Shown: positions 60,102-64,000 of the stretch, piece by piece
How positions within the stretch are numbered: position 1 is the stretch's first letter
Layout of the letters: the number at the start of each line of letters is the position of its first letter
Source of the DNA: Escherichia phage 04086
Strand: one strand, 5' to 3'
Length of the DNA: 64,000 nucleotides
Sequence record: OR842557
Position numbers and translations under genes: made by a program
Notes under the pieces: model-generated
The model's database searches: none
The model's input: the letters and a program-made list of their open reading frames with translations, nothing else
Told to the model about the DNA's origin: nothing

Positions 60102-60644
60102 ATGAAATTTTTAACCGGTAGTTATCTATCCCTGATGAATGCTTTTGCAAACCATTCTGATGCTAGAGTAGAACACATTTGTAATAGTGGGTTTTATGTA
60201 CCTGATTCACAAACCCTGTTTAAAGAATGCTGCACCTTAAAACTTGATGGTGGGCGCCAATCCGGTAAAACTAAAGCAGTATCCATTTTTGCCACAGAAT
60301 GGTTAGCTAATGGCGGCTCTATTGTTATTTTATCTAATAACACGGCATATGCCAATGTTTCGGCTAGTGCAATCCGAAAGGAATATTTTAATAACCATAC
60401 AGAAAGTATTAAGTACCGTTTGTACACTGATTCTGTTCGTAGTTTTATTGGTAATACTGCATGCAAATTCCGTGGATTATCGCTTTCACGTGTTCTGTAT
60501 ATAATTGATGAGCCTGTTAAAACACCTAATATGGATAAGATTTATGATGCCCATATAAAGGTGGTGCAACATTGCTGTCATGCATCATGTGTCGAAACCA
60601 ATCAAACTGCTCGTCCTCTGTTCTTTGTGATAGGAATGCAATGA
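60102..60644 (+). CDS. Small P-loop NTPase-like protein
   Basis: 180 aa; Walker A-like GGRQSGKT and Walker B-like VLYIIDEP. Confidence 0.45.
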   Translation: MKFLTGSYLSLMNAFANHSDARVEHICNSGFYVPDSQTLFKECCTLKLDGGRQSGKTKAVSIFATEWLANGGSIVILSNNTAYANVSASAIRKEYFNNHTESIKYRLYTDSVRSFIGNTACKFRGLSLSRVLYIIDEPVKTPNMDKIYDAHIKVVQHCCHASCVETNQTARPLFFVIGMQ

Positions 60645-60937: not shown

Positions 60938-61148
60938 ATTGACAATTGAAGGTTCTGAAGAAGCTCTGAAAAGATTTGTTGAATGGCTTAATGGACCAGG
61001 TGAACAAGACTTTCTGGAAGTCTGGGATGGCGGTCGGTGGAATGGTAAAGAAATGATTTACCCGACTACCTATATCTCCGTGCAAGGTTGGACTGAAGGC
61101 CTTCGTTTGGTAGAATATGATATCGCAACTGGCGAGGAAGTGAAATGA
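60930..61148 (+). CDS. Hypothetical protein
   Basis: 72 aa coupled ORF. Confidence 0.4.
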   Translation: MSKLTIEGSEEALKRFVEWLNGPGEQDFLEVWDGGRWNGKEMIYPTTYISVQGWTEGLRLVEYDIATGEEVK

Positions 61149-61423
61149 TTGAAGATATCAAGGGTTACAAACCACATACCGACGATAAAATCGGTAAAGT
61201 GAATGCTATTAAAGATGCCGAAATTCGGTTAGGGCTGATGTTTAAAGCTCTAGAAGAAGAACATGTTACCTATTATATGAACTTAGATACCGAAGAGGTT
61301 TCTGAACAAGAACTAGACCAGGCTCATGAACGCATTACCCAGATTCGTAATGCAATTGACCGTCTTAAAGAAGCTAGTATGTGGGCTTGTCGTTCTGTGT
61401 TCCAACCAGAAGAAAAGTACTAA
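61145..61423 (+). CDS. Hypothetical protein
   Basis: 92 aa coupled ORF. Confidence 0.45.
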   Translation: MIEDIKGYKPHTDDKIGKVNAIKDAEIRLGLMFKALEEEHVTYYMNLDTEEVSEQELDQAHERITQIRNAIDRLKEASMWACRSVFQPEEKY

Positions 61424-61427
61424 AGCA

Positions 61428-61478
61428 GTTTACATCTCCTGTAGACGTGGTACTATAGACCTATCAACTACAGGAGAT
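61428..61478 (+). promoter_or_regulatory. Early promoter stem-loop cassette, near-identical to 58812-58860
   Basis: agcagtttacatctcctgtagacgtggtactatagacctatcaactacaggagatta. Confidence 0.6.
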
Positions 61479-61484
61479 TACAAA

Positions 61485-61943
61485 ATGTCAGAAATTAATT
61501 CAGAAGTATTCATCCGCCGCAACAAATTACGTCGTCAGTTCGAAACCGAATTCCGCGAACTGAATGCGTCCATCAAAAAAGCCGCCATTAAGAGCGGAGT
61601 CCCAGCCTTCTTTATTAAGTACTCTAATCACTTGTTAGACCGTGCTATCCAACGTGAAATCGACGAAAAATACGTTTTTGCTTTATTCAAGCAACTCCAT
61701 AACCATGTTAAAGAAATTCATGAATTTTTAATCCAGGAACCTCTGCCTGATGTAGAATCCGAAATTGTCCCTGGTAAAGTGTATCGCCCATTGCGTCTCG
61801 AAATTACCGATAAAACCTTATGGTTGGGTATGACCGTAGACCGTAAACATCCTGATAAAGGATACTCGTTAAAATGTCGTATGGCATTTGTTAACTCTAA
61901 ACGTTTAGAAGGTAAAACCAGCACGAAAGTAATTTACTTGTGA
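61485..61943 (+). CDS. Hypothetical protein
   Basis: ORF track 61326 overlaps the promoter; ATG at 61485 (MSEINSEVF) after RBS caggagatta; 152 aa. Confidence 0.45.
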   Translation: MSEINSEVFIRRNKLRRQFETEFRELNASIKKAAIKSGVPAFFIKYSNHLLDRAIQREIDEKYVFALFKQLHNHVKEIHEFLIQEPLPDVESEIVPGKVYRPLRLEITDKTLWLGMTVDRKHPDKGYSLKCRMAFVNSKRLEGKTSTKVIYL

Positions 61944-61950
61944 GGACAGT

Positions 61951-62685
61951 ATGGAAACTATAAAATATCCATATGACTACTATAAAATAATAAATGACGC
62001 CTTATCTAGGGATACACCTAATGATGCCTATACAGAAAAGCACCATATAATACCGAGTTGCGTTGGTGGTCCTGACACTCAAGACAATTTAGTTGAGCTT
62101 TATGCTGACGAACATTATTTGGCCCATATGTATCTAGCCAAAGCTAATCCAAACCACTATGGGTTGAATTTTGCTTGGCTAAATATGAGCTCTACTTCAA
62201 ATTCAAAACAAAGGTCTTATTTTGTAGATTCTGAAAATTATAAGTTGGCTAAAGAATCATTTTCAAAATTGCAATCTATTAATAAAATTTTATTTTTCTC
62301 TAAAAAGGAAAATAGGGCTGCTCATTCAATGGCTTTAATAAAGTATTTTGAAAAGGAAGGCTCTAAAGAACGGCTCAAAGAAATTTTAAATTCGCCAAAA
62401 GTAAAAGCTAAAATGTCTGAAAAACGGGTTAAGTATTTTGAAAATCCTGAAAATAGACAAAAATTTAAAGCCATACAAAATTCTAAAGAAACTATAGAAA
62501 GGAAAAAAGCCTCTTTGCGGAAATCCCCTATATGGCATGAACCGATGTATTCACAATTATATAAATTATGGGTAGATAATAATAAACTCAAGTGTGGAAG
62601 ATTTAGTAAAATCGCAATTAAGAACGGCTTCCCTAATGTAGATTACCGAGGACTTATTGATTATGATTTTTCTAAAAAAACTTAA
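61951..62685 (+). CDS. HNH homing endonuclease (third copy, more divergent)
   Basis: Motif EKHHIIPSCVGGPDTQDNLVELYADEHYLAH; basic Lys-rich C-terminal half. Confidence 0.7.
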   Translation: METIKYPYDYYKIINDALSRDTPNDAYTEKHHIIPSCVGGPDTQDNLVELYADEHYLAHMYLAKANPNHYGLNFAWLNMSSTSNSKQRSYFVDSENYKLAKESFSKLQSINKILFFSKKENRAAHSMALIKYFEKEGSKERLKEILNSPKVKAKMSEKRVKYFENPENRQKFKAIQNSKETIERKKASLRKSPIWHEPMYSQLYKLWVDNNKLKCGRFSKIAIKNGFPNVDYRGLIDYDFSKKT

Positions 62686-63220
62686 ATATTCTTTAATAGT
62701 GGCTATTATGTGTGGTTCGTTTTCTGTAAGTGCAGCAGAACCCGTATTTACAGAAACCCAGCTTGATAATTTACATTATGCGTATGCTTTCGGTGAACAA
62801 TACCAAAAGTCGGGAAAGTTCAAAGAAACCCCTAATCAAAAAGGATTAGGATATATCATGGCCGGATTACTATGGCAGGAATCATCCGCCGGAATTAATC
62901 AAGGTTTAAATAAAGATAAGCACCATGCTTATGGCATGTTCCAAAATTACTTGCCTACGTTAAGAAGTCGTGTTCAACAGGTAGGTTGGAAGATGTCTGA
63001 TAAAGAAATAATTCGTATGGTCCAAAAACGACAGAACAGTGCCTCTTGGGCCTACATTGAGCTGTCTTATTGGATTGATGTTCACAAAGGTGACCTGAGA
63101 AAAGCGATTGCTTCTTATAATGCGGGCTGGAACGTCAAAGCAGGCAGTAAGTATGCTTCTGAAGTTCTAGAAAAGGCCAATTACCTAAAATCTAAAAAGA
63201 TGTTTGAGGCGGTATATTAA
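62663..63220 (+). CDS. Lytic transglycosylase (SLT domain) with N-terminal signal peptide
   Basis: Signal-like MIFLKKLKYSLIVAIMCGSFSVSA; SLT motifs LWQESSAG (catalytic Glu), YGMFQ, SYNAG; ORF track start 62657 is TTG. Confidence 0.75.
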   Translation: MIFLKKLKYSLIVAIMCGSFSVSAAEPVFTETQLDNLHYAYAFGEQYQKSGKFKETPNQKGLGYIMAGLLWQESSAGINQGLNKDKHHAYGMFQNYLPTLRSRVQQVGWKMSDKEIIRMVQKRQNSASWAYIELSYWIDVHKGDLRKAIASYNAGWNVKAGSKYASEVLEKANYLKSKKMFEAVY

Positions 63221-63577
63221 ATGATTAAGCAGATGACTATAGCGCTTATGTTGATTGCTCCGGGAGTATTAGCGTCACAAGTTGATGATAGTAATAATTC
63301 AATTGTCGAGTATGCTACCCGTACAGCAAAAGATTATTGTCATCCGAGTAATACTGAATGCATTATCGAATTCAGTTCAAAAATCACAGCTGCTTTTAAA
63401 GATGGCCAGAATGACGTAGAGCATCGCCGAATGAAAGAGAAAACTCTTTCTAAAAGATACGAGCAACGTCTAAACGTTACTGAATGTATTCCGTCTGATA
63501 AAAAGTACAAAGAAATGTGCGCGTCTATGGTAGACAGACTCGTTGACTCTTACAACCGAGGATTAAACTCTAAATGA
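63221..63577 (+). CDS. Small secreted / periplasmic Cys-containing protein
   Basis: Signal peptide MIKQMTIALMLIAPGVLAS; four Cys in mature part; coupled to the SLT gene. Confidence 0.5.
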   Translation: MIKQMTIALMLIAPGVLASQVDDSNNSIVEYATRTAKDYCHPSNTECIIEFSSKITAAFKDGQNDVEHRRMKEKTLSKRYEQRLNVTECIPSDKKYKEMCASMVDRLVDSYNRGLNSK

Positions 63578-64000
63578 TTATTGATTATATTAAGGGCGAT
63601 ATTGTCGCCCTGTTTCTTCAAGGTAATAATGTTGCGCACGGGTGCAACTGTTTCCACACAATGGGTTCAGGCGTAGCTGGACAATTAGCTAAGGCTTATC
63701 CGCCTATTCTCGCTATTGATAAAACCACTTATTTAGGCCATTTGGAAAAACTTGGCACGTTTACTCAAGCCACAGGTAATAAGGGCCAAATTTGCTATAA
63801 TTTATACACCCAATACGAACCGGGCCCTAATCTTGATTACGGTGCTTTAGTAAACTGTATGATAGAATTAAACCGTACCGCAAAGGGTCTTTTGTTTAAA
63901 CCAAGAATTTATATCCCTCGCATCGGTTGTGGTATTGCTAGTGGTGATTGGGACAAGGTTTATCAATTGATTAATTTGTTTACTCCTGATATTAATTTAG
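63574..64000 (+). CDS. Macro-domain protein (ADP-ribose binding / hydrolase family), C-terminus beyond window
   Basis: GDIVALFLQGNNVAHGCNCFHTMGSGVAGQLAKAYP parallels the macro motif GDIT..VNAAN..LGGGVAGAI; second motif IPRIGCGIASG; ATGA overlap with upstream stop. Confidence 0.7.
   Translation, partial: MIIDYIKGDIVALFLQGNNVAHGCNCFHTMGSGVAGQLAKAYPPILAIDKTTYLGHLEKLGTFTQATGNKGQICYNLYTQYEPGPNLDYGALVNCMIELNRTAKGLLFKPRIYIPRIGCGIASGDWDKVYQLINLFTPDINL

Follow-up and report, generated by a model that had tools for sequence, protein, structure and literature searches.

The window analyzed here comprises 64,000 nucleotides of one strand of Escherichia phage 04086 (sequence record OR842557), and a plus-strand open reading frame (ORF) occupies its 3' end. 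Starting with an ATG at 63574, this frame stays open up to position 64000, giving 142 codons, as the preliminary description of the DNA had reported. At the matching locus of the near-identical phages PSD2002 and Bp7 the ORF has 155 codons; therefore, only the last 13 codons fall outside the window, which ends inside the last beta-strand of the product. We assume that the gene is intact in the 04086 genome, given these relatives with 97 to 99% identity, in which case the protein should end in ...VVVDYESPLP(A/T)SV. The ORF call, full-length orthologues, Pfam, PHROG and an AlphaFold2 model identify the feature at 63574..64000 (+) as the 5' part (codons 1 to 142 of 155) of a tk.4 (adfM) orthologue, encoding a single-domain macrodomain protein. 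The gene directly upstream, vs, lies at 63221-63577 (+), and its TGA stop (63575-63577) and the tk.4 ATG (63574-63576) share the tetranucleotide ATGA (63574..63577, +). The previously described overlap with a gene for a secreted protein is thus confirmed but is limited to 4 nt, with vs as the partner. The same ATGA overlap is present in T4 (...ctagATGAttgta), and this arrangement suggests that vs and tk.4 are co-transcribed and translationally coupled. A promoter and terminator scan of positions 61300 to 64000 gave no excess over shuffled sequence (11 promoter-like matches against 8.5, and 4 terminator-like matches against 1.9). No promoter could be assigned to tk.4; judging by the overlap of the two genes, tk.4 appears to be read from the vs transcript.

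To place the locus, positions 62600 to 64000 were compared with phage genomes by megablast, and 78 records matched. The best records all belong to Dhakavirus (PSD2002, 97.6%; IME540, 97.4%; Bp7, WG01 and MX01, approximately 97%). In Bp7, the matched region is annotated as vs.1, vs and tk.4, the RefSeq name of the last being "phosphatase"; the labels already attached to the gene in GenBank are Tk.4, "phosphatase" and "macro domain-containing protein". In BLASTP, the encoded protein aligned with T4 Tk.4 over residues 1 to 142 with 53% identity (E 3e-58), and tblastn also matched T4 at 53% identity, with 97% query coverage. T4 tk.4 sits between vs and tk.3, and the gene order regB-vs.1-vs-tk.4-tk.3-tk.2-tk is common to T4 and the Dhakaviruses; regB, vs.1 and vs are seen in the window, and tk.3, tk.2 and tk were read from the 97%-identical Dhakaviruses and from T4. 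Like the window protein, T4 Tk.4 (AdfM) has 155 residues, 53% identity over the whole length, the position between vs and tk.3, the ATGA overlap and identical active-site residues. The two differ in genus (Tequatrovirus for T4, Dhakavirus for 04086) and in the second glycine-rich loop, which reads IGKGNW in T4 and IASGDW in the window protein. By sequence and synteny, the ORF is the Dhakavirus orthologue of T4 Tk.4, a gene that is already known and annotated, in agreement with the T4-type origin proposed in the preliminary description. Among 50,697 phage records, tblastn detected homologues of the protein in 2,736 (about 5%), which span Straboviridae, Felixounavirus, Pakpunavirus, rV5-like phages, Ackermannviridae and others.

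The surrounding genes were also inspected. The vs product is annotated "valyl-tRNA synthetase modifier" and matches PHROG 1256 (E 3e-34), and a Pfam search of Vs gave no match. Its N-terminus resembles a signal peptide both here (MIKQMTIALMLIAPGVLASQ) and in T4 (MTKILVLCIGLISFSASASA), and it has conserved cysteines; going by its sequence, such an N-terminus seems unexpected if the protein binds a cytoplasmic synthetase, as is claimed for it. The product of the preceding gene, vs.1 (62657-63220, +; PHROG 600), also has a signal-like N-terminus, together with a weak, sub-threshold match to the Pfam SLT transglycosylase family. Between regB and vs.1 lies a 244-amino-acid ORF (61951-62685, +) with an HNH-like motif (EKHHIIPSCVGG...DNLVELYADEHYLAH), for which neither Pfam nor NCBIfam gave a match at the thresholds used. 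PSD2002, IME540 and NC-G also carry this ORF, with a homing endonuclease as its annotated product; it is absent from most other Dhakaviruses, including Bp7, where the match begins only at query base 160 to 169. The ORF probably entered as a mobile homing-endonuclease insertion. Further upstream, the vs.4 orthologue (61145-61423, +) matches the Pfam family Acb2_Tad1_hairpin (E 4e-15, 56 bits; cut-off, 27), which identifies its predicted product as the anti-CBASS cyclic-nucleotide sponge Acb2. As this gene is located about 2 kb upstream of tk.4, the early-gene block would harbor at least two counter-defence genes. Finally, a vs.8-like ORF of 180 amino acids (60102-60644, +) has a borderline match to Pfam Terminase_6N (E 2.4e-4, 21.2 bits; cut-off, 22), a family that corresponds to the P-loop ATPase region of the T4-type large terminase, and it may encode a small P-loop NTPase.

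Next, the assignment of the tk.4 product to the macrodomains was evaluated. The protein clipped by the window end matched Pfam Macro (PF01661) with an E value of 4.6e-7 and 30.2 bits, and the full-length orthologue scored 33.8 bits (cut-off, 22 in both cases); the match to PHROG 335 had an E value of 2.3e-61. In NCBIfam, no specific curated family was found for the protein, just a far-sub-threshold match to DarG. A single tk.4 sequence already matches macrodomains in the PDB, and a family profile built from 50 sequences recovered BT1257 (4e-21), TARG1 (3e-18), SCO6735 (8e-18) and Poa1p (5e-15), as well as the DarG macrodomains of M. tuberculosis (5e-11) and T. aquaticus (2e-10). An AlphaFold2 model, built on a full-length protein 99% identical to the window ORF, had a mean pLDDT of 93.4 and a pTM of 0.88. 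As seen in a Foldseek search of the PDB, the top matches of this model are all macrodomains (probability 1.0, TM 0.7 to 0.8), among them TARG1, Poa1p, BT1257 and DarG, and the model shows the three-layer alpha/beta/alpha macro fold. The glycine-rich ADP-ribose-binding loops MGSGVAG (residues 30 to 36) and GCGIASG (residues 118 to 124), together with N25, show no or almost no variation among 120 homologues. Overall, sequence profiles and the predicted structure place the protein in the ALC1-like/TARG1 class of macrodomains. The macro-domain assignment of the preliminary description is therefore borne out by Pfam, PHROG 335, PDB profile matches and structure prediction, and the motifs on which it was based are all present: GDI (residues 8 to 10), HGCNCFHTMGSGVAGQ and IPRIGCGIASG (residues 114 to 124).

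To refine the comparison at the level of the active site, the DarG sequences, TARG1 and BT1257 were aligned to the Tk.4 family HMM; the M. tuberculosis DarG sequence was confirmed against 5m3i (100% match), and that of T. aquaticus was read from 5m31. A plain MAFFT alignment of Tk.4, SCO6735, BT1257, TARG1, DarG and PhiKZ gp104 was set aside, as it misaligned the central NMIGQ/NLYTQ segment of SCO6735 and BT1257, and profile-HMM and pairwise alignments were used instead. The first loop and active-site segment, HGCNCFHTMGSGVAGQ, delimited by homologue and profile-HMM alignments, spans residues 22 to 37 (63637..63684, +), and its H22, G23 and N25 are invariant in all 119 ungapped homologues. N25 corresponds to the Asn that was mutated in PhiKZ AdfM (N23A). 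Gln80, located in an NLYTQ motif by profile-HMM alignments and encoded by the codon CAA at 63811..63813 (+), does not vary in any of the 120 ungapped homologues. In the HMM alignment this residue falls opposite Lys80 of DarG (FPTK) and Lys84 of TARG1 (LITK); it aligns with the Q of BT1257 NMIGQ, which is Gln85 of SCO6735 in the pairwise alignment of the latter two. Similarly, His22 and Asn25 (HGCN) lie opposite His24 and Asn27 of SCO6735, and Gly23 lies opposite its Val25. The second, diphosphate-binding loop, PRIGCGIASGDW, covers residues 115 to 126 (63916..63951, +) according to the homologue and profile-HMM alignments, and its Ala122 occupies the position of the catalytic Asp125 of TARG1. 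The adjacent Ser123 (IASGDW) is uncommon, with Gly in 111 of 121 homologues and Lys in T4; since the functional T4 protein tolerates Lys there, no loss of function is expected from this residue.

By these alignments, the Tk.4 family is a Gln-type macrodomain (H22, N25, Q80) and not a Lys-type one such as DarG or TARG1. The authors of the SCO6735 study pointed out that this Gln sets SCO6735/ALC1 homologues apart from TARG1/DarG homologues (PMC9411070), and since the Tk.4 family is of the Gln type, SCO6735 is a better mechanistic model for Tk.4 than DarG. The analogy of Tk.4 to M. tuberculosis DarG in the preprint on the T4 gene (see below) is therefore to be read, on the alignments used here, as structural rather than mechanistic. 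The preliminary description had held that loss of the conserved macro catalytic residues would speak against the assignment. The lysine of TARG1 and DarG is indeed absent, but Gln80 in its place gives an SCO6735-type active site, which is catalytically competent in SCO6735 (PMC9411070). In the same study, Val/Ile25 was described as SCO6735-specific, its backbone positioning the catalytic water (PMC9411070); the Tk.4 family has an invariant Gly23 at that position. As the role proposed for Val25 goes through the backbone, Gly23 is weak evidence against a shared mechanism with SCO6735. The catalytic mechanism of the window protein is thus an extrapolation, since it lacks both the DarG Lys and the SCO6735 Val25.

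The known macrodomains resemble Tk.4 to different degrees. SCO6735 of Streptomyces coelicolor (5e3b) and BT1257 of Bacteroides (2fg1), which are Gln-type and ALC1-like, share its fold, and BT1257 is the best sequence match of the family (E 4e-21). They share with Tk.4 the Gln in place of the catalytic Lys, the His and Asn of the HxCN motif and a second loop of the form PRIGCG(L/I)AGG. However, the identity is only about 23%, the motif around the Gln is NLYTQ in the Tk.4 family and NMIGQHG in SCO6735 and BT1257, and the longer mobile loop of SCO6735 with its Lys89 and Lys94 is not evidently conserved in Tk.4. In addition, SCO6735 has a housekeeping role in its bacterium, whereas the role of Tk.4 is in phage counter-defence. 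Human TARG1/OARD1 (4j5r) is the top structural match (Foldseek E 5.6e-9, TM 0.75 to 0.83) and, like Tk.4, is a small single-domain macrodomain with a PRIGCG motif, but neither residue of its Lys84/Asp125 dyad is found in Tk.4, which has Gln80 and Ala122 instead.

The DarG macrodomain (5m3i; 5m31/5m3e) and Tk.4 belong to a common fold class (Foldseek probability 1.0, TM about 0.7), and thymidine-ADP-ribosylated single-stranded DNA is the presumed substrate of both. Nevertheless, the catalytic Lys80 of DarG (FPTK) is replaced by Gln80, and the C-terminal DarT-binding domain and the adjacent darT gene are absent in the case of Tk.4, a 155-amino-acid single domain with vs and tk.3 as neighbors. 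The PADLOC DarG model gave 23.6 bits for the window orthologue, 36 for T4 Tk.4, 133 for PhiKZ gp104 and 263 for M. tuberculosis DarG, and the NCBIfam DarG equivalog NF048014 gave 20.1 bits for Tk.4 (cut-off, 250). An origin of Tk.4 as a captured DarG is therefore ruled out by score, catalytic residue and architecture. PhiKZ gp104 was also named AdfM in a separate 2026 paper in Cell Rep (PMC13309987), and, like Tk.4, it is a phage-encoded orphan macrodomain that counters DarTG2. In contrast to Tk.4, PhiKZ gp104 is a Lys-type protein (FPTK) close to DarG, is about 18% identical to the window protein and is imported into the phage nucleus (PMC13309987). As judged by these sequence differences, the T4-type and PhiKZ AdfMs are members of different macrodomain subfamilies that were probably recruited independently. 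Going one step further, Tk.4/AdfM may be an independently recruited, Gln-type, SCO6735/BT1257-like enzyme for the lysine-independent removal of thymidine-linked ADP-ribose, rather than a captured DarG, and may also erase protein- or RNA-linked ADP-ribose; we propose this tentatively, its chances being somewhat short of even.

The function of the family has been approached genetically in T4. In a HIDEN-SEQ preprint of November 2025, tk.4 was the sole T4 gene significantly depleted on a DarTG2-expressing host, a clean knockout made T4 sensitive to DarTG2, and the gene was renamed adfM, for anti-DarT factor Macrodomain (bioRxiv 10.1101/2025.11.20.689424). T4 lacking both adfA and adfN had been found to be still resistant to DarTG2 (PMC11825919), implying a further factor, and the tk.4 result fits this. 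The idea of the preliminary description that the protein could reverse ADP-ribosylation-based host immunity matches these published genetics. Our literature search on Tk.4 and macrodomain returned that preprint alone and no biochemical study of Tk.4. The chemistry is known from other macrodomains. SCO6735, with its Gln-type active site, is more efficient than DarG or TARG1 at cleaving thymidine-linked ADP-ribose from DNA, and it rescues cells from DarT; this hydrolysis is abolished by Q85A and nearly abolished by N27S (PMC9411070). In addition, PhiKZ gp104 frees DNA in vitro from the ADP-ribose added by DarT2 (PMC13309987), so the use of a phage macrodomain against DarT2 has precedent. The wide spread of the family, in 2,736 of 50,697 records, is as expected of a widely useful counter-defence gene.

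Taken together, the best explanation is that the Tk.4/AdfM orthologue is an ADP-ribosyl glycohydrolase that erases the thymidine marks of DarT2 and thereby defeats DarTG2, to which we assign a probability of roughly 0.8. For this reading, fold, orthology, synteny and active-site residues come from the present analysis, and the phenotype (genetic, in T4, from a preprint) and the chemistry (SCO6735 and PhiKZ AdfM) come from the literature. In the proposed mechanism, the protein would be expressed early from the vs.1-vs-tk.4-tk operon, probably sharing the vs transcript. The host toxin DarT2 attaches ADP-ribose to thymidines in TNTC motifs of single-stranded phage DNA, and the AdfM orthologue would hydrolyze the N-glycosidic bond that links this ADP-ribose to thymine. 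Catalysis would be substrate- and water-assisted, with Gln80, held by Asn25, positioning the distal ribose. Removal of the mark would make the phage DNA a replicable template again, and the abortive defence by DarTG2 would be defeated. We infer that the 04086 orthologue has the same activity and mechanism as its homologues; the anti-DarTG2 phenotype was seen for T4 Tk.4 and would extend to the window orthologue by analogy, at only 53% identity and with the unusual Ser123 in its second loop.

Other roles for the protein were weighed against the removal of DarT2 marks. Annotation points to a metabolite-processing macrodomain, that is, a Poa1p-like ADP-ribose-1''-phosphate phosphatase or an O-acetyl-ADP-ribose deacetylase: PHROG 335 and RefSeq carry the label "phosphatase", some records read "Poa1p-like family protein", and JGI labels homologues as O-acetyl-ADP-ribose deacetylases. 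Yeast Poa1p is also second in the Foldseek ranking and matches the N-terminal HxCNC...G motif (6lfu, E 2e-6, residues 3 to 44 of tk.4 to 7 to 48 of Poa1p; profile E 5e-15), the family profile spanning the whole chain. At the Poa1p active-site residues H23, S30 and F152, which are mutated in the PDB entries 6lfs, 6lft and 6lfu, the residue-level alignment was read at the N-terminus only, where H22 and T29 of tk.4 may correspond to H23 and S30 of Poa1p. However, the labels are homology transfers, and the sole functional data for the Tk.4 family come from T4, where the fitness loss of tk.4 mutants was specific to DarTG2. In vitro, promiscuity towards metabolites of the Appr-1''-p/OAADPr type is common among ALC1-like macrodomains, and such promiscuity could coexist without being the selected function, which makes a primary metabolite role very unlikely. 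Slightly less probable still is that DarT2 is neutralized mainly by binding and inhibition of the toxin, or by sequestration of ADP-ribosylated DNA, and not by hydrolysis. In vitro, DarT is inhibited by each of the catalytically dead variants SCO6735 Q85A, DarG K80A and TARG1 K84A, most strongly by that of SCO6735 (PMC9411070), and by analogy non-catalytic inhibition is possible as a side activity of Tk.4. Nevertheless, the strict invariance of H22, N25, Q80 and both glycine loops across 120 diverse homologues argues for selection on catalysis, with hydrolysis as the main activity, and the protein is without the C-terminal DarT-binding domain of DarG (NCBIfam DarG, 20 bits versus a cut-off of 250).

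Two further alternatives concern the linkage that is cleaved. ALC1-like/TARG1-class macrodomains are known for the removal of ester-linked (Glu/Asp) and thymidine-linked ADP-ribose, not of Arg-ADP-ribose, and to our knowledge the latter is removed by ARH/DraG-type hydrolases and not by TARG1-class macrodomains. This bears on the suggestion in the preliminary description that the protein regulates the ADP-ribosylation which T4-type phages impose on host proteins through Alt, ModA and ModB. These enzymes are arginine-specific R-S-E transferases (PMC8120803), and the sole point in favor of such reversal or tuning is the co-occurrence of the transferases and a macrodomain in T-even genomes. The family is also common beyond the T-even group (Felixounavirus, Pakpunavirus, rV5-like phages and Ackermannviridae, in a comparison of tk.4 homologues rather than of Alt/Mod content), and no defect is reported for the T4 tk.4 mutant on a plain K-12 host (bioRxiv 10.1101/2025.11.20.689424). 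We consider this role, which is unsupported, exceedingly improbable and reject it on linkage chemistry and phylogenetic distribution. A different possibility is a broad-spectrum eraser whose main targets would be other RNA- or protein-ADP-ribosylating defences, with DarT2 marks as just one substrate. SCO6735 and TARG1 do act on protein substrates too (PMC9411070), and the family is very widespread in phages, but CmdTAC, an mRNA ADP-ribosyltransferase system, still defends robustly against tk.4-carrying T-even phages (PMC11618068), and in the T4 screens tk.4 was reported for DarTG2 only (bioRxiv 10.1101/2025.11.20.689424). We regard such a broad main role as unlikely, and the removal of DarT2 thymidine marks remains our preferred reading.

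As a member of a very common counter-defence family, found in about 5% of sequenced phage genomes, tk.4 predicts that phage 04086 resists abortive defences of the DarTG2 type, which is of use for host-range prediction and the choice of therapeutic phages. The absence of the catalytic Lys and the presence of Gln80 in the Tk.4 family appear to be new relative to the literature; the contrast between the Gln of T4-type AdfM and the catalytic Lys of DarG, TARG1 and PhiKZ AdfM is a refinement and not a discovery. If Gln-type recruitment was indeed independent, T4-like phages and PhiKZ-type jumbo phages would have reached anti-DarT2 activity through two macrodomain subfamilies, and if the Tk.4 type, like SCO6735, also erases protein- or RNA-linked ADP-ribose, its counter-defence range would be wider.

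We also observed a GC-rich hairpin near the 5' end of the gene, AGGGCGAT-ATT-GTCGCCCT, at 63593-63611 (+), covering tk.4 codons 7 to 13, with 8 bp and about -13 kcal/mol. A T-rich tail comes after the hairpin, which the scan marked as terminator-like. T4, RPN226 and Bp7 share the same 20 nt without a change, and Esco_phi_B-01 differs in the loop only. The hairpin is absent in five other genera. In the distant, rV5-like phage YN3, codons 7 to 13 instead form another hairpin, of 10 bp (GGGAGAT-TTA-ATCTCCC), in which A-U replaces C-G as a compensatory change and Ala12 has become Ser. Going by sequence and position, the tk.4 hairpin could be an attenuator, an mRNA-stabilizing element or a coincidence.
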